A stretch of DNA of 32,000 bases from Luteolibacter ambystomatis (GCF_018137965.1 NZ_CP073100.1:2397754-2429753), one strand, 5' to 3'; shown: positions 8,369 through 28,163, numbered from the stretch's first letter. Numbers and translations: made by a program. Notes: generated from the letters alone by a model not told the origin.

Positions 8369-9103
8369 ATGACCCGCAACTGGATCCGCAAGTCCCACCG
8401 CTGGCTTGGTCTCCTCTTCAGCCTCACCGCCCTCATGTCCGCGGGCAGTGGCGTCCTGCACACCGTCATGACCCGCACCCAGGCTCCCCCTCCCTCCGCC
8501 CGCCCATCCGGCGGAGGGCTGGATGCCGCCGCCATCCGCATCCCCATCGCCGATGCCGTGGCGAAACTCCCCGCGGGCACCAAAGCCTCCGCCGTCAATG
8601 TCCGCACCATCAGCGGCGAGCCGTGGTATCAGGTCTTCACCGGTGGCCCCGGCGTCCCCGCCTACGTCAGCGCCGTCGATGGCCGCATCGATCCCACCCG
8701 GGACGAACTCTACGCCGCTGAAATCGCCACCGCCTTCCTCGGCGGCAAGCCCGTCCGCAAGACCGGCTATCTAACAGCCTTCAACAACGAATACATCAAC
8801 ATCTTCCGCATCCTCCCCGTCCACCGCTACGATGCGGACGATGGCAAGGGCACGCGCGTCTATGTCTCCACCACCACCGGCAGCGTCACCCGCCACACCG
8901 ATGACGGCCGCCAGTTCGAAGCCAGCGCCTTCACCAACTTCCACAAGCTCGGCTTCATCCCGAACAAGGACATCCGCGACTGGGTCCAGATCATCACCAC
9001 CGGCGGACTCTTCCTCCTCTCCCTCTTCGGCATCCTCCTCTTCTTCATCACCCGCCCCCGCAAGCGCGCGGCTTCTGAGCCCCGGAGGGGCGACGGATGG
9101 TAG
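8369..9103 (+). CDS. PepSY-associated transmembrane protein, partner of the TonB-dependent receptor
   Basis: ATG 8369 (MTRNWIRKSHRWLGLLFSLTAL, the typical PepSY_TM N-terminal helix), a periplasmic PepSY-like middle region, and a second TM helix (IITTGGLFLLSLFGILLFFI). The last 10 codons and the stop lie inside a REP element. Confidence 0.8.
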   Translation: MTRNWIRKSHRWLGLLFSLTALMSAGSGVLHTVMTRTQAPPPSARPSGGGLDAAAIRIPIADAVAKLPAGTKASAVNVRTISGEPWYQVFTGGPGVPAYVSAVDGRIDPTRDELYAAEIATAFLGGKPVRKTGYLTAFNNEYINIFRILPVHRYDADDGKGTRVYVSTTTGSVTRHTDDGRQFEASAFTNFHKLGFIPNKDIRDWVQIITTGGLFLLSLFGILLFFITRPRKRAASEPRRGDGW

Positions 9104-9345
9104 CCGGTGGCGCAAGCCACCGGACAGCACCCGGCCCATTCGTCGATGCGCCCGGTAAACATCCATGATCTTCCGGACTCCGGTTGCGCCGCCCCTCCGG
9201 GGCTCAATCCATCACACGCGCTCCACCGGTGGTTTGCACCACCGGCTACCTTTCGCCGTCCCTACGGGACTCAGAATCTCCATCTACTACACTCCCCGTA
9301 GCCGCGTTCGTAAGAACGTGGGCTGGGCAAACCCACCCACCCCCT
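9075..9345. repeat. REP family A pair (forward plus reverse copy, REPIN-like) with a conserved tail motif
   Basis: Forward copy CTGAGCCCCGGAGGGGCGACGGATGGTAGCCGGTGGCGCAAGCCACCGGAC at 9075-9125. Reverse-orientation copy (CCGGTGG-N6-CCACCGGCTACC...CGCCGTCCCTACGGGACTCAGAATC) at about 9224-9278. The tail CTACTACACTCCCCGTAGCCGCGTTCG..GAACGTGGGCTGGGCAAACCC recurs at about 10664-10735. Confidence 0.75.
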
Positions 9346-9424
9346 CCGGCATCGCCCCATCTTCCGCCTCACTGGGAGTGGCTGCTTTCGAGCAGCCATG
9401 AAAGGGGCATCGACATCCATTCGC

Positions 9425-10118
9425 TCAACCACGCCCCCGCACTCACCCACCTCTGAGCCCCGGAGGGGCGGCGGACGGTAGCCGGTGGCGCAAGCCACCG
9501 GACAACACCCGACCTCATTGACAAGTCCCGGAGGGACGACGCAACGCAGGCTCCCGACCTCCCTCCACTCCTCACGCCCCCGCACTCATCCACCTCTGAG
9601 CCCCGGAGGGGCGGCGGACGGTAGCCGGTGGCGCAAGCCACCGGACAACACCCGCCCTCATTGACAAGTCCCGGAGGGACGACGCAACGCAGGCTCCCGA
9701 CCTCCCTCCACTCTCTCACGCCCCCGCACTCACCCACCTCTGAGCCCCGGAGGGGCGACGAATGGTAGCCGGTGGCGCAAGCCACCGGACAACACCCGAC
9801 CTCATTGACAAGTCCCGGAGGGACGACGCAACGCAGGCTCCCGACCTCCCTCCACTCTCTCACGCCCCCGCACTCACCCACCTCTGAGCCCCGGAGGGGC
9901 GACGAATGGTAGCCGGTGGCGCAAGCCACCGGACAACACCCGACCTCATTGACAAGTCCCGGAGGGACGACGCAACGCAGGCTCCCGACCTCCCTCCACT
10001 CTCTCACGCCCCCGCACTCACCCACCTTTGAGCCCCGGAGGGGCGGCGGACGGTAGCCGGTGGCGCAACCGGACAACACCCGACCTCATTGACAAGTCCC
10101 GGAGGGACGACGCAACGT
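9425..10118. repeat. Tandem array of a 144-bp REP doublet (4 full units, a 5' partial unit and a 3' truncated unit)
   Basis: The unit start CTCTGAGCCCCGG recurs at 9451, 9594, 9738, 9882 and 10026, giving periods of 143/144/144/144. Each unit holds hairpin A (CCGGTGGCGCAAGCCACCGG) plus box B (GTCCCGGAGGGACGACGC). Only a few substitutions distinguish the units. The last unit has a deleted hairpin arm and ends 12 nt before the transposase ATG. Confidence 0.92.
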
Positions 10119-10129
10119 AGGCTCTCGTC

Positions 10130-10564
10130 ATGCCTTCCACCTATTCGTGCCTCCACGTTCATGTCATCTTCTCGACAAAAGATCGGGTACCGGTGATCGG
10201 CACGGCTTGGCGCGACCGCCTGCACTCCTTCCTGGGTTCCGTCATTCAAGAACGCGGGGCACAACCCGTCGCGATCGGAGGTGTGGCGGACCATGTCCAT
10301 CTCCTGATCGGCCTCAAACCCATACATGCACCTGCCGCGATCGTGCGTGAGTTGAAATCCGTATCCTCCAAATGGATCCGGGAAAACCGGTTGGCCCCGG
10401 CCTTCGGGTGGCAGGAAGGTTACGGTATTTTCAGCGTGGGACCATCCCAAGTGGATGCCGTGGTGAGATACATTGCGAACCAGGAAGAACATCACCGCAC
10501 GCATACCGCGGAGGAAGAGTTCCGGGCGTTCCTGAGAAAAGCCGGTTTGGTTTCTCCGTCATAA
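10130..10564 (+). CDS. IS200/IS605-family Y1 (HUH) transposase, REP-associated (RAYT-like)
   Basis: 144 aa. HUH motifs (LHVHVIFSTKDR and ADHVHLLIGL), WQEGYGIFSV, and a C-terminal Tyr region (VVRYIANQEEHHR). Flanked by a perfect 18-bp inverted repeat at 10096-10113 and 10576-10593. No tnpB is adjacent. Confidence 0.88.
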   Translation: MPSTYSCLHVHVIFSTKDRVPVIGTAWRDRLHSFLGSVIQERGAQPVAIGGVADHVHLLIGLKPIHAPAAIVRELKSVSSKWIRENRLAPAFGWQEGYGIFSVGPSQVDAVVRYIANQEEHHRTHTAEEEFRAFLRKAGLVSPS

Positions 10565-10575
10565 TCGCGGAAGTC

Positions 10576-10735
10576 GCGTCGTCCCTCCGGGACTCCATTC
10601 CATCGGCCTGTGCTCCGGTGGCTCCCGCCACCGGCTACCATCCGCCGCCCCTCCGGGGCTCTGAATCATCCTCCACCAACTACTACACTCTCCGTAGCTG
10701 CGTTCGCGGGAACGTGGGCGGGGCAAACCCGCCAT
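10576..10735. repeat. Right-flank REP module, inverted relative to the left array
   Basis: GCGTCGTCCCTCCGGGAC (reverse complement of box B) at 10576-10593. Hairpin CCGGTGGCTCCCGCCACCGG at 10615-10634, followed by CTACCATCCGCCGCCCCTCCGGGGCTCTGAATC (reverse complement of REP A). The tail motif matches 9274-9340. Confidence 0.8.
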
Positions 10736-17948: not shown

Positions 17949-19655
17949 TCACTCCGGGGTGTCCTCGATGGTGAGATCCTCAAGATCCATTCCGCCGACG
18001 AGTTCCTTGGCACGCGGGATGTGTGCGAGGGCGGCCTTGCGTCTGGCGTCCTCTTCACGGGCGGTGCGTTCCTCGCGGGCGCGCTTGCTTTCACGATCGC
18101 CGTGGTGGGTGGTGGAGGCGGGCGGGCGGTAGGGATCGACCTCCTGGCGATCGCGGGAGGAGTGGGAGGACGAGCCGCCGCTTCCGCCTCCACCACCCTG
18201 GTCGACCCAGCGGCCGCCATCGCGATTGCCCTTCGGGGCGCGCTTTTGATCGGGGCGGTAGGCGGCGGCGATGGTGCTGGCGCGGGCGTGAACGTCCGCC
18301 TGCGGCTGGAGGAAGAGGGTGGCACCGGCGGCGGGCTTGGCGACGCCGAGGGCATCGTAAACATGATCGGCCTCCATGGGGAGGCGGATGCGGTTGATGA
18401 GGATGTCCATGCGCTCGGCCTCGGCCTTGAGGTCGGTGGGCTCGGCCCAGTCCGGGAAGAACTCGGGGAGATCGGCATCCGTGCTACCAGAGTTCCAGTA
18501 GTTCCAGGCGGGGATGAGCTGGCGGGTGATGATGCCGCCGACGAAGTCCGCGATGCCACGGACGACGCCGCCCTTCGTCTCCGCGTGGACCTCGCCAAGG
18601 GCGCGGCTGCCGCCGTCCTTTGAGACGCCGGAGGTGAGGGTCTGGCCGAGCATGTACTGCTGGCATTGTTCATCGGCGAGGCGGAGGAGCTCGGCCTGGG
18701 GGAGGCCCTGGGCGGAGACGGAGTTTTGCGGGAATTCCAAGGTGGTGCCTTGTCGGGCGATCCCCCACCCCGCGTTGCCGAGATTGGCCATCATCTCGGC
18801 GAGGCCTTCCTTCGCGCTGTCGTCGGAATAGGTGGCCCAGCGGAAAGGGACGCCGAAGAGCTGGGCGAACTTCATGAACCACTCGAGGCCGTAAACGGCG
18901 GCGAGCCACCAGCCGGTGAGGACGCGGAGGGGTGCGGAGACCAATGGGTGGCCGGGGTGGCCGCCGTGGATGGCGATGAGGAAGCGGTGCTCGGGGAAAT
19001 CGATGTGATCCGCGGTGACGCCGCCGGAGGGATTGAGCATGAGGCGGTCCTCCTCCCCTCCCCAGCCACGATATCCATAGTAGCGGGCGGGCACGGAGCG
19101 GTAGGCGGCGGGACGCCATTCGCCGCGGAGGTTTTCCCAGCGGGGCTCGGTGACGGAGATGCCGGTGAAGTAGCCGGCGACGAGGTCGTCCATGAGATCC
19201 TCCAGCGCGCCCTCCGCGTAGGCGGGCCGGGGCCGGGCGCCCCAGAGCATGGCATGGGCGCGGGCGCTGGTGGCGGCGGCGGCTTCATCCGGCTGGCGGC
19301 CATCAAGGCACCACGGGCGGCATTTCCACGGTGCGCCTCGTACTTCGCGCTGGAGCTCGGCGAGGGACTTCTGGAGCATGGGCCAGGAATCGAACATGGC
19401 CTGGTAGAGCCGCTGCCAGAGGGCGAGATCGCCGTGGAGGGTGCTCTGGAGGATGCCCTTCACGTCCTGGGGCATCATCTGCCGCTCGAAGATCTCGTAA
19501 AGGCGGTCCCGCGCGGCCTCGATGATGATGGGGCGGGCGACGGAGGAAACGGAGGTTTTGGAGGATGGAGACGCGGTGGCAGCGGCGGCGACATGGGAGT
19601 CGCGGCGGGCGGGAAGCGCGGAACCGACGGGATGGCAGCCAGACATGCCGCGCAT
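17949..19655 (-). CDS. Phage portal protein, Mu gp29 / DUF935-like
   Basis: 568 aa. The N-terminal segment ILQSTLHGDLALWQRLYQAMFDSWPMLQKSLAELQREVRGAPW matches the gp29-type pattern (Gd...q.eLf.dm...d.hl...l..Rk..v..l.w). MLGQTLT is in the core, and the tail is Gly/Ser- and Arg/Glu-rich. ATG at 19655, with a second ATG at 19646. Confidence 0.7.
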   Translation of the reverse strand: MRGMSGCHPVGSALPARRDSHVAAAATASPSSKTSVSSVARPIIIEAARDRLYEIFERQMMPQDVKGILQSTLHGDLALWQRLYQAMFDSWPMLQKSLAELQREVRGAPWKCRPWCLDGRQPDEAAAATSARAHAMLWGARPRPAYAEGALEDLMDDLVAGYFTGISVTEPRWENLRGEWRPAAYRSVPARYYGYRGWGGEEDRLMLNPSGGVTADHIDFPEHRFLIAIHGGHPGHPLVSAPLRVLTGWWLAAVYGLEWFMKFAQLFGVPFRWATYSDDSAKEGLAEMMANLGNAGWGIARQGTTLEFPQNSVSAQGLPQAELLRLADEQCQQYMLGQTLTSGVSKDGGSRALGEVHAETKGGVVRGIADFVGGIITRQLIPAWNYWNSGSTDADLPEFFPDWAEPTDLKAEAERMDILINRIRLPMEADHVYDALGVAKPAAGATLFLQPQADVHARASTIAAAYRPDQKRAPKGNRDGGRWVDQGGGGGSGGSSSHSSRDRQEVDPYRPPASTTHHGDRESKRAREERTAREEDARRKAALAHIPRAKELVGGMDLEDLTIEDTPE

Positions 19656-19760: not shown

Positions 19761-21218
19761 CTATCGAGTTGTTCCGAAATCGCGGGCTTCATTCCAAAAG
19801 AGGCGGAGTTTACTCGGGTCAAAGAGCTCTGAGTAGGCTTTCCGGGGCTCGATCTCGGCTGTCCTTTTGATGAATTCTGCGAAATCGGGCTGCATAGCAG
19901 CTTTCATGAACATCATGTCGAGTGCGAGACGATCGAAGCCGGACGCGTTGGCGTCATCAGTAAGGTCACTCGCAATGAAGGCGGCATCGATCACTGCCAC
20001 TTTAGGAATCGTAAGATTTCGCACCACGGTAGGTCGCGGATCGACAGAGGAGAGCTCCTGCGTGACGGATTCCTTCTTCTTGAAATCGAATTCTTGTTCG
20101 CTAGTGACGACAGGAGAGGAGGCTTGATCGGTTCTCGAAATGTCCTGATCAATTCGGGTTTTGGGAAGAAGCAGGTGGAAGGGGTCGGTGGCGAATTTTC
20201 CGAGATTCGAATCGAACTCAATTGCCACCCACATACCCGCTCCGATTTCGGCCTGGAGGACACTGAGTTCGATCTCCAGCGATAACGTGGTTTGAGCGGG
20301 AATCGAGAATACGGGAGTAAGATCTCTTTCCTGATTTCCCTCCGCCCATACGATATCGTGGTGATAGGTGTGAAGGGATTCGAGAGGGCCGGGAAGTGGC
20401 CCCATGACCTCAAAAAGCTCCTTAACCTGATAGGTTAGAGCGGTAATGAGAAGATCTTCTTGGGATGGATTTCGGATAGTAAACTGGAAGACGAGCCGAG
20501 AAGCTTTGCTAAAGGGATACTTGGGTTCAATCGCCATGTAGGAGTCATGATCCTTGAGCCACGACCGATTGCTGTCGCAGAAAATCGCGCTAGCGTCTGT
20601 GCGTTTTCGGTATCCGATGCTGGTGTTGGACAAAGCGAATTGGATGATCTCCGGTTTTGGAGTAGCTTTGGGCGAAGCACTGATCACGACGCTCCCGGAT
20701 TCATCTTTTCCCTGCATCGAATTTTGATGACCCTTATGGACGAAAAGGGCACCCACCATTCCCGCAAGGATCAGTGCGGCCGTGACTGCGGTGCCGATTA
20801 CTGCCATGCGGTTCTTTCTTCGCCGCTCCAATATCCGCAACGCGTGGCCGATCGTCTCCGCGGTCAGGTCGCCGGCCGCATCCAATACAGTGACAGCGCG
20901 AAGGTATGCGGGGATCGTCTGAAATGGAATTGGTTGCGTTTTTACGGTCAATAAACGATTTCCCGGTGTCGGGTATACCTCCTTGAACCACTCCAGTTCC
21001 GTCATTGCGTAGGCGCCTGAAGCTATCGATTCAGGCCGGGCAAGGAAGATGAGCAGCTGTGCATCGGAGACAAACTCGCGGATCTTGTTGTCATAGGATC
21101 CGCCCGGTCGAAGCTGCTGGCGATCAAAGAACACGTCATATCCCTGCTCCCGAAGCCGAATAGAAATGGACTCCGCCAAGTCGGCATCGATTGCCGCGTA
21201 AGAGATAAATACCTTCAC
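19761..21218 (-). CDS. TIR domain - single TM - ~300-aa unknown C-terminal domain protein
   Basis: GTG start. TIR signature KVFISYAAIDADLAESISIRLREQGYDVFFDRQQLRPGG...LLIFLARPESIASGAYAMTELEWF. Basic RRRKNR, then the TM helix MAVIGTAVTAALILAGMVGALFV. About 50% GC by eye, against about 65% in the flanks. Confidence 0.8.
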   Translation of the reverse strand: MKVFISYAAIDADLAESISIRLREQGYDVFFDRQQLRPGGSYDNKIREFVSDAQLLIFLARPESIASGAYAMTELEWFKEVYPTPGNRLLTVKTQPIPFQTIPAYLRAVTVLDAAGDLTAETIGHALRILERRRKNRMAVIGTAVTAALILAGMVGALFVHKGHQNSMQGKDESGSVVISASPKATPKPEIIQFALSNTSIGYRKRTDASAIFCDSNRSWLKDHDSYMAIEPKYPFSKASRLVFQFTIRNPSQEDLLITALTYQVKELFEVMGPLPGPLESLHTYHHDIVWAEGNQERDLTPVFSIPAQTTLSLEIELSVLQAEIGAGMWVAIEFDSNLGKFATDPFHLLLPKTRIDQDISRTDQASSPVVTSEQEFDFKKKESVTQELSSVDPRPTVVRNLTIPKVAVIDAAFIASDLTDDANASGFDRLALDMMFMKAAMQPDFAEFIKRTAEIEPRKAYSELFDPSKLRLFWNEARDFGTTR

Positions 21219-21528: not shown

Positions 21529-21613
21529 CGTCGCTCCGCGACTCGATCTCCGATGCGTGGACGGTCCGTGGGTTGAAACCCACGGCTACGACCCGGCCGT
21601 CGCTCCGCGACTC
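21529..21613. repeat. REP-like element (family with CCGTGGGTTGAAACCCACGG hairpin flanked by CGTCGCTCCGCGACTC direct repeats)
   Basis: Direct repeats at 21529-21544 and 21598-21613. Hairpin with a 9-bp stem at 21566-21585. Confidence 0.7.
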
Positions 21614-21700
21614 ACTTGCATGGGAGGAGACGATGGGAGCGGACGAATCTGTTAGACCCGGACATCTCGGCGAGACGTCCCTACCTCCGGAGGCGGGCGG

Positions 21701-22344
21701 TTATTTTGCGCCGAGCTTTTCGAGCTGGTGGCGGAGGGTTTCGAGGTCGGTGTCGTGGCGCTTGAGGAGGGCGGCGTGCTCGGCGGTGGTGCGGTCGAGA
21801 TCGCGGCGGCTTCCGCGGCGAGGGATTGGCGGGCGGACTCGGCGAACTGGTATTGGCTGGTGAGTGCCTGCGCCTGGCGGGTGAGCATGGCGACGGCGCT
21901 GTCTCCGGTGGAGGCGGCGGCGAGCGCGGCGGCGTGGGCGTTGCGCGCTTCATCGAGGGCGGTGGTTTGTCCGGCGATGAGGGAGGTTTGTTTCGCGACG
22001 GTGGCCTGGAAGGCGTCGACCTGGTCGCGGAGAGCGGCGTTTTCCGCAGCGACGCGGGTGAGCTGGGCGGCGGTGGCGGTGCCCTTGCCGGCGAGGCGGG
22101 CGGTTTCCGTGGCAAGGGTGCGGGCGCGATCGGTGGCGGTGGCGAGATCGCGGGCGAGGAGGTCATTGGCGGCGTGGAGACCGGCGGCGGAATCGGCGGC
22201 GCGCTGGAGGCCGGGCCGGATGGCATCGACGGCGGGAACGACGGGAGCGGCCTGCGGGAGTGGCAGCAGCGGGAGCGGCTTCACCTGCGGGGCACAGGAG
22301 AAAAGGCCGGCGCAGAGCGGGAGCAGGAGAATGGCGCGGTGCAT
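21701..22344 (-). CDS. Coiled-coil lipoprotein with an apparent frameshift near 21800-21812
   Basis: MHRAILLLPLCAGLFSC has a lipobox. A long Ala/Leu/Gln/Thr coiled coil runs to ...SLAAEAAA, after which the tracked frame becomes Pro/Ser/Thr junk. A different frame reads RDLDRTTAEHAALLKRHDTDLETLRHQLEKLGAK and stops at 21701. Confidence 0.6.
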
Positions 22345-22403: not shown

Positions 22404-22441
22404 GTGCAGGGTGATCAGTCAGCAGAATGGGCGCGCAGCGG

Positions 22442-22600
22442 CAATGTAGTCGAAAGCTCCGCTTTCGATATGGGGGGCGGCCGGGTGGTGGAGTGGGAGC
22501 CGGAGGATAAGTGACGTCCAGTCCGCGAAGAGGGAAAGCTGGAGCTTCCCCCTACATTGTAGTCGAAAGCGCCGCTTTCGATCCGAGGGGCGGCCGGATG
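22442..22600. repeat. Composite repeat D-E-D, copy 1
   Basis: D = CAATGTAGTCGAAAGCTCCGCTTTCGATATGGGGGGCGGCCGGGTGG (22442-22488; 8-bp stem TCGAAAGC/GCTTTCGA). E = AAGAGGGAAAGCTGGAGCTTCCCCCTACA (22528-22556). A second D lies at 22557-22597. Confidence 0.85.
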
Positions 22601-22704
22601 ATGAAGTGGAGCCACACGAGGAGGCCCACCGCGGACCAGAGGCAGGCGCGGGCGAGGCGGAGCCGGAAACGGAATCCAACCGGATCAGTTTCCACGGGGT
22701 TCAT
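22552..22704 (-). pseudogene. 5' fragment of a third membrane-protein paralog, truncated by the composite repeat
   Basis: ATG at 22704. MNPVETDPVGFRFRLRLARACLWSAVGLLVWLHFIIRPP parallels the N-terminus of the 22685-23185 protein, then runs straight into repeat D (LGSKAALSTTM, stop). Confidence 0.6.
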
Positions 22705-23185
22705 AGTAGATGGCAGGCGTGGGTTTCCAACCGGGGAGAATGAGGAGGCCGAGCGCGGTGGCGATGGAGGCCAGGAGCATGCGGAGGAATCCGTGATGGA
22801 CTTCACCCTCCATGTGTATCCGGAGGAGTGCGTGGAAAAACGAGCCGCACGCGGCCAGCGCGATGAGCCGGACGATCCAGCGCAGGAGGGCATGGCGGAC
22901 CATCACGCCCGCGAACCAGGGGACGACGAGCGTGATGACGGCGGAGGCTAGGAAGACCGGGTTGTCTCCAGGCTCGGAGCAATGGTCGGTGATCCTGAAC
23001 CCCGCGATTTCCCCGTACACCACCAGCATCCTCCTCCAGCAGATGTCCCACACGATCCACAGCGGCGGATGGCCGCCCCGGACAAACTGCGTGCCGACGA
23101 CCAGGAACAGGCCGAACCACAGCAGGGTGCGTGCGGTGAAAAGCCGGACGCGGAAAAGCAGCGGATCAGTGGCTACCGGGTTCAT
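22685..23185 (-). CDS. Small ~4-TM membrane protein, paralog A
   Basis: ATG at 23185 (MNPVATDPLLFRVRLFTARTLLWFGLFLVV...). Four hydrophobic segments, ending ...LILPGWKPTPAIYYEPRGN. The upstream 129 codons of the tracked ORF are out-of-frame overlap with paralog B. Confidence 0.7.
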   Translation of the reverse strand: MNPVATDPLLFRVRLFTARTLLWFGLFLVVGTQFVRGGHPPLWIVWDICWRRMLVVYGEIAGFRITDHCSEPGDNPVFLASAVITLVVPWFAGVMVRHALLRWIVRLIALAACGSFFHALLRIHMEGEVHHGFLRMLLASIATALGLLILPGWKPTPAIYYEPRGN

Positions 23186-23705
23186 CGTAGTTGGCGGCTG
23201 GTGTTTCCTTATCCGCGCCAGGCAGGATGCAGGGCGCGGCGGCTTTCCATCCGGACAGCAGGCAGAGGCCGGCGGCATTGGTGAGAGCAGCGAGTACGAA
23301 CAGCACACCGCCGGAGTAGATTCCCTCCACATCGTCATACCGACCGATGGACGGCCACGGAACGGCCAGGAAGACGACAAGCGCCGCGACCGCCAGCGCC
23401 CGGCAGATCCACCGCAGCGGGGCGTTTCCGGCGAGCACCCGCGCGAACCACGGGCAGACGGCGGAGAGAAAGAGGATCGTCCCGAGGGAGGCGAGGAACG
23501 CGGTGTAGAGGTTCGGCCCCAGGATGTATCCGCCCGGATGATGGCCGAGGCGGAAGCCGACCATGGTTTCACGAGGAATGTCGAAAAACATCCACCGCAC
23601 GGAATATCCGTGCGTCCAATCCAAAGGCAATGCCGCGAGGAGGAGGGCCGGTGCGAGCCAGAGGAGGATGCGGGCGAGGCGGCGGCGGCGCGGGGATTCC
23701 GGCAT
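23166..23705 (-). CDS. Small ~4-TM membrane protein, paralog B
   Basis: ATG at 23705 (MPESPRRRRLARILLWLAPALLL...), with an alternative ATG at 23750. It ends ...LLSGWKAAAPCILPGADKETPAANYDEPGSH. The architecture matches paralog A and the C-terminal GWK...Y(Y/D)EP motifs are conserved. Its 3' end overlaps the start of A by 20 nt. Confidence 0.7.
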   Translation of the reverse strand: MPESPRRRRLARILLWLAPALLLAALPLDWTHGYSVRWMFFDIPRETMVGFRLGHHPGGYILGPNLYTAFLASLGTILFLSAVCPWFARVLAGNAPLRWICRALAVAALVVFLAVPWPSIGRYDDVEGIYSGGVLFVLAALTNAAGLCLLSGWKAAAPCILPGADKETPAANYDEPGSH

Positions 23706-23780
23706 GATGTGGAGGATCACGGGTGGCCGGGGTATTGGCAAGGATGCCATGAGCTACATTCTTCCCCACACCGGGAGTCA

Positions 23781-26700
23781 TCATTTGGCAGCCAGCTTCA
23801 GGCGGAGCTTGGTCCATTCATCGTCCGAGCAACCGGCCTCGGTGGCGGCGGAGGCGAACTTGGTTTCCACTTCCTGTGAGGACATCTTCATGTCGGCAAG
23901 CGTGCTTCGGTAGCCTTCAAAGGCGTCGATGGATACCTGATCGACACGTCCATGCAAATGAATCGATTTCAGCGATATTACCAGGCACCGGTGAAAAAAT
24001 GCTCCAGCCTCCGCAGGACGGCCCGTGGCCCGCAAAAACTGTGCAAAGTTGGCAAGCCCACTGGTCAAATCCGCTTGATTCGGAAAGGACGCCTTCTCTT
24101 GCACCGCCACGGCACGCCGGTAAAAAATTTCTGCTTCTTCCAGACGATTAGTGGCCTGCAACACACAGGCGAGGTTATAATATGAAATCGCCACGTACGA
24201 GTGATTCAGCCCCAAGGATTTCTCATAGATTGCGGCTGCACGCCTCAAAAGAGGCTCGGCATCACCCCAGCGGCTCAACTTCATCAAAAGCCTGGCGAGA
24301 TTATTGGCAGATGTGGCAATTTTCGTGTAACCGGAGCCCGGGGATCCCTCATTGATCGCCAGCGCCCGCCGATACAGCGGTTCCGCTTCCGCGAGTCGGT
24401 CGGCACCGACCAGGAAGTGCGCAAGCCTATCGAGAGAAACCGTGATGGCAGGATCCCCCGTCCCCCAGACTTTCTCACGAATCGCCAGCGAGCGACGGAA
24501 AAGAGGTTCGGCTTCTTTCGACCGGCCCGTAACTTCAAAGAGCTGGCCGATATTGTCGAGCACGGCAGCTACTTTCGAATGATCCGGGCCAAGGGATTCT
24601 TCCAGAATCGCCAACTGGCGGCGATAAAGGCCCTCGGCCTCTTCCAAACTGCCCTTGTCGACCAAAACATTCCCCAGATTGCCCGAAGTGGTTGCGACAT
24701 CCGGGTGATCCGGGCCGCAAACACGCTCGCGAATATCCAGAGCACGGCGCAAAAGGGACTCCGCGTCCGCAAGGCGGTCCGTGGAGTGGCAAAGTTGGCC
24801 GAGATTGTCCAGGACCATCCCCACCGACGGGTGGTTGGAACCGTGAGCTTTCTCCAAAATCACCAAAGCCCGCCGGAAAAGGGGTTCCGCTTCCGTGAAG
24901 CGGTTCGCCTCGTTGAGAAGTCCGGCGAGAGAATTAAGAACCAAGCCGACATTAGGGTGATCCGGCCCCAGCGTTTTTTCGTTGATCGAAAGCGCGCGTT
25001 TCAACAGGGGCTCCGCCGCGGCGAAGCGGTTTGTGGTCATCAGGAGAACAGCCAGATTGCCGAGCGAGGTAGCAATGCAGGGATGATCGGCAGGCAGGCA
25101 CTTCTCATGAATCGCCAACGCACGGCGGAGAAGGCCTTCGGCTTCTCCATAGCGGTCTGTGGACTGGCAGAACAAAGCGAGATTGTTTAGTGAAGCAGCT
25201 AGGGCGGGATGATCGGATCCGAGAGATTTTTCAGAGATTGCAACCGCGTTGCGAAACAGCGACTCCGCTTCGGAGCGTCGGTTGGTCTCCTGGAGCAGAC
25301 GAGCCAGATTGTTGGTGGACGTGACATACTGCCATGAATCCAGATCGTGGAATCTCTCATGAATTTGGAGGGAGCCTCGGAGAGCCGCCTCCGCCTCGAC
25401 CAGGCGGTTTTCATCCCGCAGAAAATGCGAGTAATTGTTGAGGCAGTTTACAAGATCCGACATCTCCACTCCTGGTGACTTCGACCAGATCTCCAACCCC
25501 TGGCGAAAAATAGGCTCCGCCTCCTTGGGCCGGTTCGTCGCAATCAGTATCCCTGCCAGATTGCAAAGACTTCTTGCCACGGCATCCGACCGGCCACCCT
25601 CCCGCCTTTCCGCCGATGCCAGCAATGACCGGAACAACAACTCGGCCTCCTCATTCCGGGCCAATGTAAACAACGCGCAAGCCAGACGGTTGTTCACCTC
25701 GGTCCACATCTCCGCATCCACATCCTCCGAAACCCATGCCGCCGCACGGCGACAGGACGCCAAAGAGGCTTCAAAATCCGGCTTCAACATGAGGGCATCA
25801 CTCTGCTTCAGAAGAGAATCCACCATACACTGGCGCTCTCTCTTCCGTTCGTCCGCCACCCGCTCATGCCATGCTTCCGCCGCAGCATACTGGGCGTCCA
25901 GATGTTTCATGCGGACTTCACCGGAGTCCGTATCCTCCTCCATCAGCGCCGCTGCCTCGCCGAACCTCCCCTTCGCCATGAGAACATAATACTTTTGTTT
26001 CGCCTCCGCTCCGGGGTTCTCCTCCACCTGCCGAACGTAAAGATCCAGTTTTCTCCGCAATTCTCCAACGGATACTTTCATCTCCACCGCTACCTGCTGC
26101 CATGCTAGATCCATTCGTTGTCCTGGCGTCAGCTCCTCTTTCTCCCTCCTATCAGCAGCGGCCAATTTGATAGCCCGGTCAACAGCAGCTTCCATGACAG
26201 CAGCGTTCTCCTTCGCTTCCACGCGGTTCAATTCTTTCGCCTCCAGGTGATTCCGCTGCTGCTGATGCAAGAATGTCGCACCTCCAGCCACCACTAGCGC
26301 CACCAATAAACATACCGCGATCAAACCATGACGCCGCGTGCGGACCACCTCGCGGCGCACCTGGTGCTCCTCGATCCGGAGGGAGATGAGGACTTCGCGC
26401 AGGGCCATGACGCGGGTGCGCAGTTGATGGAGGTCCGCCGGGCGCTCGTGGAAGCCGGGCGCCTCCTGCAGCCGCCGGCGGTGGGCGATCTGCCACTCCC
26501 GCTTTTCCCCGTCCTCGAGCGGAAGGTCCTCATCGTAGGGAAAGTCTTCCGGACAGATGAAGGTATAGACGCGGAAGGACCCGATCCCGCGTTCATCCTG
26601 GAGGCGGCGGCCGATGTCATGCTCGATCTGGGTGTAGCTGCGCCGCGGCATGCCGGCAGGCAGCGTGGCGGGGTCCGGCTCGCCGCTGTAGCGCATGCCG

Positions 26701-26897
26701 GCGATGTGGATGAGCGCCTGGCATTCGGAGATACGTCGTTCCAACATTCCCGTCACGGTGCCCGCATCCGGAGGAAAATTCGTCGTTTCCTCCACCGGAT
26801 GGCAGCCGATGGCGAGCAGCGCGTCCCTCACCACAAGCCTCGCTCCGCGGAGATCTCCATTGGTGGCGGAAATGAATATCTTCGGGATGGGGGGCAT
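23781..26897 (-). CDS. DUF4062 (TIR-like) - TM - coiled coil - TPR-array protein (1038 aa)
   Basis: N-terminus KIFISATNGDLRGARLVVRDALLAIGCHPVE...ECQALIHIAGMRYSG is the DUF4062 pattern. Basic RREVVRTRRHG, then the TM helix LIAVCLLVALVVAGGATFL. About 13 tandem 42-aa TPR_12/KLC-like repeats (consensus AE.L.RRALAI.EK.LG.DHP.VA..LNNLA.LL..TNR). I saw no Walker A motif. Confidence 0.8.
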   Translation of the reverse strand: MPPIPKIFISATNGDLRGARLVVRDALLAIGCHPVEETTNFPPDAGTVTGMLERRISECQALIHIAGMRYSGEPDPATLPAGMPRRSYTQIEHDIGRRLQDERGIGSFRVYTFICPEDFPYDEDLPLEDGEKREWQIAHRRRLQEAPGFHERPADLHQLRTRVMALREVLISLRIEEHQVRREVVRTRRHGLIAVCLLVALVVAGGATFLHQQQRNHLEAKELNRVEAKENAAVMEAAVDRAIKLAAADRREKEELTPGQRMDLAWQQVAVEMKVSVGELRRKLDLYVRQVEENPGAEAKQKYYVLMAKGRFGEAAALMEEDTDSGEVRMKHLDAQYAAAEAWHERVADERKRERQCMVDSLLKQSDALMLKPDFEASLASCRRAAAWVSEDVDAEMWTEVNNRLACALFTLARNEEAELLFRSLLASAERREGGRSDAVARSLCNLAGILIATNRPKEAEPIFRQGLEIWSKSPGVEMSDLVNCLNNYSHFLRDENRLVEAEAALRGSLQIHERFHDLDSWQYVTSTNNLARLLQETNRRSEAESLFRNAVAISEKSLGSDHPALAASLNNLALFCQSTDRYGEAEGLLRRALAIHEKCLPADHPCIATSLGNLAVLLMTTNRFAAAEPLLKRALSINEKTLGPDHPNVGLVLNSLAGLLNEANRFTEAEPLFRRALVILEKAHGSNHPSVGMVLDNLGQLCHSTDRLADAESLLRRALDIRERVCGPDHPDVATTSGNLGNVLVDKGSLEEAEGLYRRQLAILEESLGPDHSKVAAVLDNIGQLFEVTGRSKEAEPLFRRSLAIREKVWGTGDPAITVSLDRLAHFLVGADRLAEAEPLYRRALAINEGSPGSGYTKIATSANNLARLLMKLSRWGDAEPLLRRAAAIYEKSLGLNHSYVAISYYNLACVLQATNRLEEAEIFYRRAVAVQEKASFPNQADLTSGLANFAQFLRATGRPAEAGAFFHRCLVISLKSIHLHGRVDQVSIDAFEGYRSTLADMKMSSQEVETKFASAATEAGCSDDEWTKLRLKLAAK

Positions 26898-26978
26898 GTT
26901 TCATTCCATAGGGGAATCGCGGGATCGGCGCAAGATTCCATATATCATGATGGCGTGGGAGTCGGAGGACAGGTGATT

Positions 26979-27157
26979 CCAATGTAGTCGAAAGCTCCGC
27001 TTTCGATATGGGGGGCGGGTGGATGATGGATGGAGGTCGGAAGGCGGGTGATGTCCGATACCAAAGAGGGAAAGCTGGAGCTTCCCCCTACATCGGGAAA
27101 GCGGAGCGGCAATGTAGTCGAAAGCTCCGCTTTCGATCCCGGGGGCGGCCGGGTGGC
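26979..27157. repeat. Composite repeat D-E-D, copy 2 (same orientation as copy 1)
   Basis: D at 26979-27022, E (AAGAGGGAAAGCTGGAGCTTCCCCCTACA) at 27063-27092, D at 27110-27155. Long stretches are identical to 22442-22600. Confidence 0.85.
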
Positions 27158-27218
27158 GGACGTGGACGGGACCTTTCTACTGGATACGCAGTAGTTTGAT
27201 GCCGGACCGCGGGCGGGA

Positions 27219-28163
27219 TCATTTGCGGGCGCGGTCCGCGGCCTCGAAATAGGACGGACGGACGGACAACTGCTGGCGGAAGAGCCATGGCAGGAGATCG
27301 GGGTGGAAGAAGCTCCATTGCCAGGCGGCATGACCGGCCCTTTTGTCGGCGACCGTCAGCCGGATATCGGAGCCCCAGCGGGCCATCGCGTCCGGCAGGG
27401 TTTTCGCGTTGTCGAGGATGGGCTGGCTCTCGCCATCATTGATGAAGAACCAGACCGGAGAGGGTTTCCTGCGGCGCTCCGCGATCATGTACGGCGATCC
27501 GTGGGTATTGCTGATGGCGACTCCGGCCGCGAAGACATCCGGATAAAGCGTGACGGCATCGATCACGCCGCCAGCCCCCGAACTGAGTCCGACGATGTAG
27601 ATCCGCGAGAGATCGACGGGGAACTTCACGCGCAACTGGTCGATCAAGGCCACGAGCATGCGCAGTTGGAAGCGCGGCTGCTCCACCACCGGTCCGCCCC
27701 AGCTCTCGCCCCTGGCATGCTGGGGTGCCAGCACATAGGCGGGGCAGGCGCGCTGGATGGCGGGCTGCGCGAAGACGAGGAACTCATCGTGCTTGAACTG
27801 GGCCGTATTGTCGGCTCCGGCTTCACCCAGTCCGTGGAGAAAGACCACCAGCGGGCACCGGACATTGCCCGTGACGGTGGGTGCGAAAAGCCGCCAGCGC
27901 ATTTCATTCCCATCCGCCTGCAGGGTACCGGCCCAGGCAAACGCATCCATGCCCACGGTGAACCCGGCCTGCTTTTCATCGCGCTGGCTGAAGGAGCCCG
28001 CCTTTGAGACCTTCGCCCTCGTGCTCCCCATGGGCAGGGTCGGTGCCTTCCGCGCGGCATCCGGGAGATACCCCAGCCCATCCAGGGTGGAATTCATTTC
28101 CACGGGCGCGGCACCGGCCCGGGAGAGGGCAAGCAGGAGGATGCAGGAGAGGAGCGTTTTCAT
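27219..28163 (-). CDS. Secreted alpha/beta-hydrolase (esterase, PHB-depolymerase / carboxylesterase-like)
   Basis: ATG at 28163 (alternative at 28172) gives the signal peptide MKTLLSCILLLALSRAGAAP. Oxyanion VVFLHGLGEAG, nucleophile elbow IYIVGLSSGAGG (GxSxG), and a C-terminal AGHAAW histidine. The upstream 300 codons of the 625-aa tracked ORF are out-of-frame overlap. Confidence 0.8.
   Translation of the reverse strand: MKTLLSCILLLALSRAGAAPVEMNSTLDGLGYLPDAARKAPTLPMGSTRAKVSKAGSFSQRDEKQAGFTVGMDAFAWAGTLQADGNEMRWRLFAPTVTGNVRCPLVVFLHGLGEAGADNTAQFKHDEFLVFAQPAIQRACPAYVLAPQHARGESWGGPVVEQPRFQLRMLVALIDQLRVKFPVDLSRIYIVGLSSGAGGVIDAVTLYPDVFAAGVAISNTHGSPYMIAERRRKPSPVWFFINDGESQPILDNAKTLPDAMARWGSDIRLTVADKRAGHAAWQWSFFHPDLLPWLFRQQLSVRPSYFEAADRARK

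Follow-up and report, generated by a model that had tools for sequence, protein, structure and literature searches.

A DUF4062 protein with a single predicted membrane helix and a distal TPR array in Luteolibacter ambystomatis

Introduction

DUF4062, renamed NIR in preprints of 2026, is a TIR-like NADase effector domain of anti-phage systems, and Swarozyc, the plasmid-borne Evangelion, Avs2, Vulcan and Vesta have been described as systems of this kind. In these preprints the domain is a glutamate-dependent NADase that acts in abortive-infection defense by converting NAD+ to ADP-ribose (ADPR) and nicotinamide; the equivalent glutamate is required in KpSwz (E97), PsAvs2 (E108), Vulcan (E98) and VstA (E103). 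Here we examine a DUF4062 gene located in a 32,000-nucleotide stretch of the Luteolibacter ambystomatis genome (GCF_018137965.1, NZ_CP073100.1:2397754-2429753; hereafter the window), whose product joins this type of head to a single predicted transmembrane (TM) helix and a distal array of tetratricopeptide repeats (TPRs). Three proteins encoded near this gene are identical to GenBank entries for L. ambystomatis (Verrucomicrobiaceae), and a fourth shows 99% identity; the DUF4062 protein itself had no exact-sequence record, probably owing to a different annotated start codon.

According to the 2026 preprints, the characterized DUF4062 forms all sense their trigger in the cytoplasm, by way of a STAND ATPase in some, and of HEAT repeats or an auxiliary domain in others. 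Vulcan is a fusion of NIR/DUF4062 to HEAT repeats (Le Mouellic et al. 2026, bioRxiv 10.64898/2026.09.04.749371), and the helical stalks beneath the DUF4062 heads of Swarozyc have been proposed to relay activation from its auxiliary domain (Osinski et al. 2026, bioRxiv 10.64898/2026.05.01.722283). The same study counts NPHP3 among four human DUF4062 proteins. About 20% of DUF4062 genes overall lie near defense genes, compared to 3.9% expected (published figure). An initial annotation of the window had regarded DUF4062 as otherwise the N-terminal module of STAND-type proteins, a view outdated by the description of the NTPase-less Swarozyc, Evangelion, Vulcan and Vesta.

The 2026 preprints have already described the domain, the reaction it catalyzes and its fusion to repeat sensors. 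What is new is the combination of a single TM helix with distal repeats, in a DUF4062 clade of hundreds of relatives. The three 2026 DUF4062/NIR preprints mention no membrane-anchored form, and targeted literature searches found no description of bacterial proteins that combine a TIR-like domain, a single TM helix and a repeat sensor.

Results

A DUF4062/NIR head followed by 13 TPR units

The annotated open reading frame (ORF) was borne out by the ORF listing on the minus strand, and the gene and its product are divided as follows (AF2, AlphaFold2).

23781..26897, minus strand: whole gene, encoding a 1038-residue DUF4062(NIR)-TM-helical linker-13xTPR protein; coordinates include the stop codon (ORF listing, Pfam)
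26403..26897, minus strand: DUF4062/NIR TIR-like alpha/beta head, residues 1-165, predicted to be cytoplasmic (Pfam PF13271, AF2, Foldseek, hhalign)
26622..26624, minus strand: codon of the predicted catalytic residue, Glu92, which is part of the invariant SYTQxE motif (alignments and TIR_2 comparison)
26145..26399, minus strand: single continuous predicted helix (stalk, membrane segment, stalk), residues 167-251 (DSSP on the AF2 model)
26268..26324, minus strand: lone predicted transmembrane helix LIAVCLLVALVVAGGATFL, residues 192-210 (Kyte-Doolittle, upstream basic patch, hydrophobicity of relatives)
25650..26144, minus strand: all-helical linker module without beta-strand, residues 252-416 (AF2 secondary structure)
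24012..25649, minus strand: 13 in-register 42-residue kinesin-light-chain (KLC)/NPHP3-type TPR units, residues 417-962, predicted extracytoplasmic sensor (Pfam, register, DNA periodicity)
23784..24011, minus strand: capping helix and C-terminal tail, residues 963-1038 (sequence)

The protein belongs to the DUF4062/NIR family by score, fold and catalytic glutamate. Residues 6-92 match PF13271 with E = 2.6e-8 and 34.4 bits against a gathering score of 24.7, and align to profile positions 1-78 of 82; relatives of the protein score 41-62 bits. The N-terminal pattern recognized in the initial annotation is thus supported by the Pfam hidden Markov model (HMM). An AF2 model of the head alone (predicted template-modeling score (pTM) 0.87; predicted local distance difference test (pLDDT) 89.9) has its strands and helices in TIR order, as in a flavodoxin-type beta-alpha fold. 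This model was used for Foldseek instead of a 420-residue model, with which the search was diluted by the long helix, and it matched the TIR domains of RPS4, RPP1, RPPT and L6 (TM-scores of 0.50-0.57, probability 0.97-1.00), with SPARTA TIR-APAZ also among the matches. Alignment of the family head to TIR_2 domains from neighboring genes by hhalign gave a probability of 93.3% (E = 2.7e-7) and placed E92 on the invariant TIR catalytic glutamate. Literature, fold and profile comparison therefore agree with the earlier proposal that the domain is TIR-like. PDB sequence searches were uninformative, the profile search being swamped by TPRs and the head alone giving one spurious match.

E92, which lies in the motif SYTQIEH, is invariant in every alignment made (31-sequence and 19-sequence alignments; A1, A2, A5), and it occupies the place of E97, E98, E103 and E108 in the characterized DUF4062 proteins. 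By homology to these proteins, the head is predicted to hydrolyze NAD+.

The distal region matches the Pfam families TPR_10 (E = 5.6e-105, 11 stretches), TPR_12 (nine stretches) and TPR_NPHP3 (PF24885, E = 2e-84), and a weak TPR_MalT match starts at residue 372. The earlier estimate of about 13 KLC-like units proved accurate: by register and by the TPR_10/TPR_12 search, residues 417-962 form exactly 13 units, mirrored in the DNA by a 126-nt periodicity.

A predicted membrane helix and a helical linker without an NTPase

The segment LIAVCLLVALVVAGGATFL (residues 192-210) has a Kyte-Doolittle mean of 2.7 over 19 residues and is the sole hydrophobic segment of the protein. It consists of 19-21 consecutive uncharged residues and is preceded by the basic stretch RREVVRTRRH, in agreement with the single helix at about 190-212 and the basic patch that had been annotated. 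An AF2 model of residues 1-420, built from 31 homologues (mean pLDDT 87.9), consists of the alpha/beta head (1-165), one helix (167-251) that runs through the membrane segment, and helices alone from residue 252 to 420; residues 252-416 have pLDDT values of mostly 85-98. Everything after residue 166 is helical in this model, with a bundle of shorter helices merging into the TPR array. Of the coiled coil of about 190 residues that had been proposed for this region, the helical nature is retained, but not the continuous coiled coil.

No NTPase family was found in the protein by Pfam, NCBIfam and PADLOC scans, and a motif scan found neither a Walker A nor a Walker B motif. Because a P-loop NTPase requires a beta-sheet core, and the module of residues 252-416 contains no beta-strand, this module does not have an NTPase fold. 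A cryptic NTPase was rejected on the basis of the family scans, the Walker regular expressions and the helical AF2 model of residues 1-420, and an ordinary STAND protein with a degenerate NTPase is effectively excluded. The annotated lack of a P-loop withstood this scrutiny: a degenerate NB-ARC or NACHT domain was looked for, and residues 167-420 are all helical.

A conserved head and helix with exchangeable distal domains

A word-indexed search with residues 1-394 returned 33 proteins, and a scan of one genome per species yielded 136 relatives, mostly from Verrucomicrobiota and Planctomycetota, with some from Methylococcales, Nitrosomonas and one Acidobacteriaceae genome. An exhaustive search covering 1.84 billion representatives gave 1120, 490 and 105 clusters (50% identity) at E <= 1e-3, 1e-10 and 1e-30, respectively.

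The TM helix is a conserved feature of this family. It is present in 60 of 67 full-length genomic members, where it starts 7-24 residues past the head, and in 139 of 155 representatives with a complete head (exactly one helix in 134); Walker A motifs occur in three and two members of these two sets, respectively. The hydrophobicity and position of the helix are conserved across relatives, whereas its sequence diverges. A few members of the head clade (L028, L033, L085, P0033 and P0062; L and P numbers are our labels for loci and proteins of relatives) keep the Avs2-type STAND form.

Head identity to the Luteolibacter protein is 40-62% across relatives, while the distal domains, 500-1100 residues long, vary from paralogue to paralogue. 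Among 60 members, 26 have TPRs of the type described here and 31 another TPR/Sel1-like solenoid; rarer distal parts include ankyrin repeats in one member, several unannotated folds and a multiheme Cytochrome_C554 domain in one. The conservation of the head, set against the exchange of the distal domains, gives the distal part a sensor-like character. Several genomes encode multiple paralogues, and one Planctomycetota metagenome-assembled genome (MAG) has five loci with at least six gene copies. A constant effector, a swappable distal domain and paralogue expansion together form the usual signature of a receptor family. A 'PBP-like' distal domain (P0017/L004) had no Pfam or PDB match and was not used as evidence.

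Predicted membrane topology

A single span would place the head and the distal domain on opposite faces of the membrane. The Luteolibacter protein has no signal peptide, and its N-terminal domain is 190 residues long. Across the family, the 15 residues before the helix contain a mean of 3.8 lysines and arginines, compared to 2.2 in the 15 residues after it; the count is higher before the helix in 47 proteins and after it in five. In one relative (L046 2430-4700, plus strand), a DUF4062 head with its glutamate is followed by a TM helix at residues 216-235 and then by a cytochrome; this downstream part matches Cytochrome_C554 (E = 5.8e-13) and contains four CxxCH motifs. Heme of the c type is attached solely outside the cytoplasm, so the distal part of this relative is expected to lie there. 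SBP_bac_3, an extracytoplasmic solute-binding domain, is found on an analogous TIR-TM neighbor in L004, and P0005 ends in a PDZ domain. From the long N-terminal domain without a signal peptide, the family charge bias, the cytochrome, the solute-binding domain and the PDZ domain, we consider it quite likely that the head of the Luteolibacter protein is inside and its TPR domain outside the cytoplasm.

The L046 fusion is also an unusual pairing of a redox/heme domain with an NADase head.

Neighborhoods across family loci

The 119 immediate neighbors of family members match 155 Pfam families, none more than three times, and a Pfam and PADLOC census of these neighbors found no conserved partner gene. 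Tandem DUF4062 paralogues recur (L001, L006, L012, L030, L032, L068 and L071). In about 15 of 75 loci, a TIR_2 gene is found no more than 10 kb from the family member; many of these TIR_2 genes encode TIR-TM-WD40, TIR-TM-TPR or TIR-TM-SBP_bac_3 proteins. The likeness noted earlier between the DUF4062 protein and a TIR-TM protein nearby in the window is thus repeated elsewhere, making this two-protein parallel a general pattern. Such TIR-TM genes beside family members, in WD40, TPR and SBP forms, suggest that the layout is a general design and not a one-off. Cooperation between the two proteins of the window is speculative, and a role of the DUF4062 protein in defense is plausible.

Strong PADLOC neighbors occur singly: class I prokaryotic Argonaute (pAgo), DpdJ, BrxHI, SngC, PD-Lambda-2_B and PDC-S35. 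A phospholipase effector and TIR effectors were also found, and no defense neighbor was recurrent among the 119.

Some individual loci are densely populated. An Opitutaceae locus (L044 698-13473) has two TIR-TM-WD40 genes and one TIR-TM-TPR_10/12 gene around its DUF4062-TM member, and in L004 (5871-16848) a TIR-TM gene (616 residues), a DUF4062-TM gene, a TIR/SIR2-like gene, an nSTAND1-TPR gene and a TIR-TM-SBP_bac_3 gene lie within 11 kb. A class I S-adenosylmethionine (SAM) methyltransferase of about 210 residues adjoins the family gene in L001 (9260-9886), L002 (11967-12608) and L011 (8405-9034). It matches Methyltransf_25/11/12 and, weakly, the PADLOC mad2/orphan-MTase models; these loci are closely related, and the gene is absent from the window.

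Neighboring genes and repeats in the window

Genes near the DUF4062 gene include the following.

19761..21218, minus strand: TIR-TM gene, with TIR_2 at residues 3-115 including Glu74, a TM helix at about 137-158 and an orphan 320-residue distal domain (Pfam, PADLOC)
21652-22344, minus strand: predicted lipoprotein of 230 residues, flanked by the TIR gene and the small TM genes
22685-23185 and 23166-23750: small 4-TM genes downstream of the DUF4062 gene, the latter on the minus strand

The DUF4062 gene has a GC content of 0.585 and the TIR gene one of 0.527, the lowest in the window, compared to 0.63 for the window and 0.64-0.69 for the flanking genes. The AT-richer island with two proteins is therefore real, and the reduced GC content of the DUF4062 gene relative to its surroundings fits horizontal acquisition. 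The TIR gene product, annotated as a TIR domain-containing protein (QUE53067.1), matches TIR_2 with E = 1.5e-14 as well as the PADLOC TIR models. A search of 5.8 billion proteins found one relative, which matches the TIR part only. This gene is a separate unit, analogous in layout, rather than a proven partner.

The first small gene starts 30 nt past the stop codon of the DUF4062 gene on the same strand, with no terminator predicted in the gap. The lipoprotein has a signal peptide with an LFSC lipobox followed by an Ala/Gln-rich coiled-coil region, and received no family assignment. A phmmer search of all ORFs of 86 loci with both small TM proteins, with the lipoprotein and with the TIR protein's distal domain gave no match, and none of 78 related loci holds a homologue of these; relatives of the small TM protein sit in tandem arrays of their own that lack a DUF4062 gene. 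The co-occurrence with small 4-TM genes envisaged in the initial annotation is not seen in related loci, and these genes were rejected as partners on both grounds.

The DUF4062 gene and the small TM genes lie in a 4.3-kb segment bracketed by two directly repeated copies, at 22433-22605 and 26971-27160, of an approximately 180-nt composite unit. Every unit is made of a pair of 60-nt elements that both contain the perfect hairpin TCGAAAGC-NNN-GCTTTCGA, and a 30-nt exact core between the two elements forms a terminator-like hairpin. All four copies of the hairpin in the window lie at these two sites, compared to zero expected by chance, and no exact match to the repeat was found among JGI metagenome contigs. 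The units could be terminator or repetitive extragenic palindromic (REP)-like elements that end two transcription units, or the footprint of mobility. A truncated third copy of a small TM gene (MNPVETDPVGFRFRLRLARACLWSAVGLLVWLHFIIRP...; 22600-22705, minus strand) runs into the left repeat, which suggests that the repeat, or recombination at it, cut a tandem array of these genes.

Elsewhere in the window, seven matches to the Rfam family Acido-Lenti-1 (RF01687) score above the gathering threshold at 9078-10660; they occur on both strands, and the spacing between four of them is 143-144 nt. The cluster occupies an intergenic or ORF-poor region past TonB-receptor and PepSY_TM genes. Between the TIR and lipoprotein genes, at 21566-21612, is an eighth copy that falls short of the gathering score (34.8 bits, threshold 37).

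A Mu-type portal gene (17949-19655, minus strand; PF06074, E = 6e-64; annotated as a DUF935 family protein) adjoins the TIR-TM gene. At 10.0-17.95 kb, none of the other tested ORFs had a significant Pfam or PHROG match; one sub-threshold Pfam match was at chance level. The portal gene looks like an isolated prophage remnant, and its position beside a TIR gene is probably a coincidence with respect to the portal trigger of Swarozyc. An origin of the locus as prophage cargo was rejected, since the portal is the sole recognizable phage gene and no family member occurs in IMG/VR, INPHARED or PLSDB.

Directly upstream of the DUF4062 gene is a secreted esterase (27219-28121, minus strand; weak Esterase_PHB match). 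A Prosthecobacter MAG (L022 9242-9949) has a homologue (E = 2e-20) in the equivalent upstream position, an arrangement that may reflect local Verrucomicrobiaceae synteny rather than a functional link.

Discussion

On balance, we favor the interpretation that the Luteolibacter protein is a stand-alone, single-pass sensor-effector of the inner membrane, in which an extracytoplasmic TPR domain controls a cytoplasmic NADase and defense is achieved by NAD+ depletion. The clade has a membrane helix in place of the ATPase, and its variable sensor most likely faces away from the cytoplasm; the helix sits where Avs-type DUF4062 proteins have the STAND NTPase. The helix of residues 167-251 would leave the head, cross the membrane at residues 192-210, and enter the linker and the extracytoplasmic superhelix of 13 TPR units. 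There, the TPR domain would bind a periplasmic cue, protein or peptide, for which a component derived from a phage or other invader, or a sign of envelope damage, are candidates. Ligand-driven clustering or re-packing of the stalk helices would then shift the cytoplasmic heads from an auto-inhibited state to an active oligomer, and depletion of NAD+ would arrest the cell, following the logic of abortive infection. Such an oligomerization switch is suggested by analogy with the Swarozyc stalks and with Vulcan.

Several observations weigh against this interpretation. The evidence for topology is indirect, coming from one cytochrome fusion and from statistics on relatives, and the charge bias of the Luteolibacter protein itself is just 5 versus 3. 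KLC-type TPRs, ankyrin repeats and the WD40 repeats of the TIR analogues are mainly known from cytoplasmic NLR-like sensors, so a periplasmic TPR domain would be unusual. The Foldseek E-values for the TIR matches are modest (1e-3 to 1e-2), and some bacterial TIR domains are described as making signaling nucleotides rather than merely depleting NAD+. Most immediate neighbors across loci are ordinary genes, and the TIR protein is the sole defense-type neighbor that PADLOC recognizes within the window. Lastly, no family member was found among 2.9 million viral contigs (IMG/VR), and a tblastn search with the head and TM helix found nothing at E <= 1e-5 in 72,556 plasmids (PLSDB) and 50,697 phage records (INPHARED). 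The clade is therefore a chromosomal one, remote from plasmid-borne lineages, and the Luteolibacter protein is not closely related to the plasmid-borne lineages among Swarozyc and Evangelion.

The absence from phages, plasmids and viral contigs, the mostly non-defense neighbors and the signal-generating TIR domains would also suit a transmembrane receptor for cues other than phage, such as envelope stress, interbacterial attack, or a kin/non-kin or host signal, with dormancy as its output, or an NAD-derived signaling nucleotide read by a separate effector. The concentration of the clade in Verrucomicrobiota and Planctomycetota, which have large signaling repertoires, and the ligand-binding or redox character of some distal modules (cytochrome c554, and SBP_bac_3 in the TIR analogues) are further points in its favor. 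We nevertheless consider such a receptor unlikely, though worth keeping in view: the characterized DUF4062 proteins all hydrolyze NAD+ to ADPR and nicotinamide in abortive infection, no candidate downstream effector is conserved beside the gene among the 119 neighbors, and variable sensors with paralogue expansion are typical of immune receptors. It is improbable that the membrane helix is mainly a tether or safety catch that holds the NADase heads apart and from which they are freed by proteolysis or membrane loss while the TPR domain serves as a scaffold or protease target. A similar idea has been proposed for the amoeba TIR protein TirC, removal of whose TM helix leads to toxicity, and a tether would accord with a helix that keeps its hydrophobicity and not its sequence; yet the TirC helix is N-terminal and has no distal domain, and a tether has no need for distal domains of 500-1100 residues that differ between paralogues.

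That same constancy of position and hydrophobicity despite sequence divergence argues against a Vulcan-like NIR-repeat sensor, soluble in the cytosol, in which the hydrophobic helix would be a buried oligomerization core. Vulcan shows that NIR and helical repeats without an NTPase can make a working defense protein, TPR, ankyrin and WD40 repeats are typical of cytosolic sensors, and AF2 draws the membrane segment within one long helix. The run of 19-21 uncharged residues with its high hydropathy and adjacent basic patch, the positive-inside bias of the family and the multiheme cytochrome c downstream of the helix in one member nonetheless leave this alternative quite improbable. As for a multi-gene system that includes the small 4-TM genes, the TIR-TM gene 2.5 kb away, or both, the closely spaced downstream gene without an intervening terminator, the direct repeats that bracket the DUF4062 gene with the small genes and the recurrence of TIR-TM genes near family members speak for it. 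We consider it highly improbable, given that no related locus contains a homologue of the small TM proteins, of the lipoprotein or of the TIR distal domain, that relatives of the small TM proteins form arrays without a DUF4062 gene, and that the co-occurring TIR genes are non-orthologous and present in only about 20% of loci.

If a membrane-spanning sensor-effector is the correct interpretation, NAD-depletion immunity would extend to periplasmic surveillance, a route would exist for rewiring NLR-type modules (effector plus repeats) into receptor-type modules, and bacteria would have a counterpart of the Toll-like receptor (TLR) layout. More tentatively, bacteria of the Planctomycetes-Verrucomicrobia-Chlamydiae (PVC) group and some proteobacteria might possess whole repertoires of TLR-style single-pass receptors, each with a cytoplasmic TIR or NIR NADase head, a TM helix and a variable solenoid or ligand-binding ectodomain (TPR, WD40, ankyrin, SBP, cytochrome c), which would perceive invaders or damage in the periplasm and answer by depleting NAD+. 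Such receptors would be the first class of NADase immune sensor to survey the extracytoplasmic space, and in them a membrane helix, instead of the STAND ATPase, would couple sensing to output.

Comparison with known systems

Vulcan is similar in being one protein with an N-terminal DUF4062 NADase head that carries the catalytic glutamate, a C-terminal alpha-solenoid and no NTPase, and in acting alone in abortive infection. It differs in that, by its description, the head is fused directly to the repeats without a membrane segment, and the protein sensed is a cytoplasmic phage protein, whereas in the Luteolibacter protein a conserved TM helix and about 200 linker residues separate head from repeats, and the sensor is probably extracytoplasmic. 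No HEAT match was found in the Luteolibacter protein by Pfam, its repeats being TPR_10/TPR_12 (Vulcan was compared by description).

PsAvs2, of the Avs2-type STAND proteins, likewise has an N-terminal NIR effector and C-terminal TPR-type sensor repeats, but the central STAND NTPase that drives its oligomerization is absent here, its place being taken by the TM helix and helical linker. Compared to STAND/NLR-like ATPases in general (Avs, bNACHT), the effector and repeat sensor are present and the central NTPase is not. Swarozyc (KpSwz) shares the DUF4062 head, a helical stalk, an auxiliary sensor domain and NAD+ depletion as its output; unlike the Luteolibacter protein, it is soluble, is triggered by a phage portal in the cytoplasm, and has an auxiliary domain unrelated to TPRs. 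Human NPHP3 combines a DUF4062-type head with a KLC/NPHP3-type TPR array and is generally described as a soluble ciliary protein. The Luteolibacter protein differs from it in that head and array are connected through a TM helix and lack an intervening P-loop module.

TIR defense proteins with TM segments exist in Escherichia coli (Nat Commun 2024, PMC11350192) and, unlike the protein studied here, are not described with large distal repeat domains. Toll-like and IL-1 receptors offer a topological analogy only: they too have a cytoplasmic TIR-type domain, one TM helix, a solenoid or ligand-binding domain outside and repertoires of paralogues. In the Luteolibacter protein, the order is reversed, with the head at the N terminus, the repeats are TPRs instead of leucine-rich repeats or immunoglobulin domains, and the head is a predicted enzyme rather than an adaptor; no homology of the ectodomains is implied. 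One-component transmembrane regulators of the ToxR/CadC type share its predicted orientation, since one TM helix links a cytoplasmic output domain at the N terminus to a sensor in the periplasm, but their output is a DNA-binding domain, whereas that of the Luteolibacter protein is a predicted NADase.

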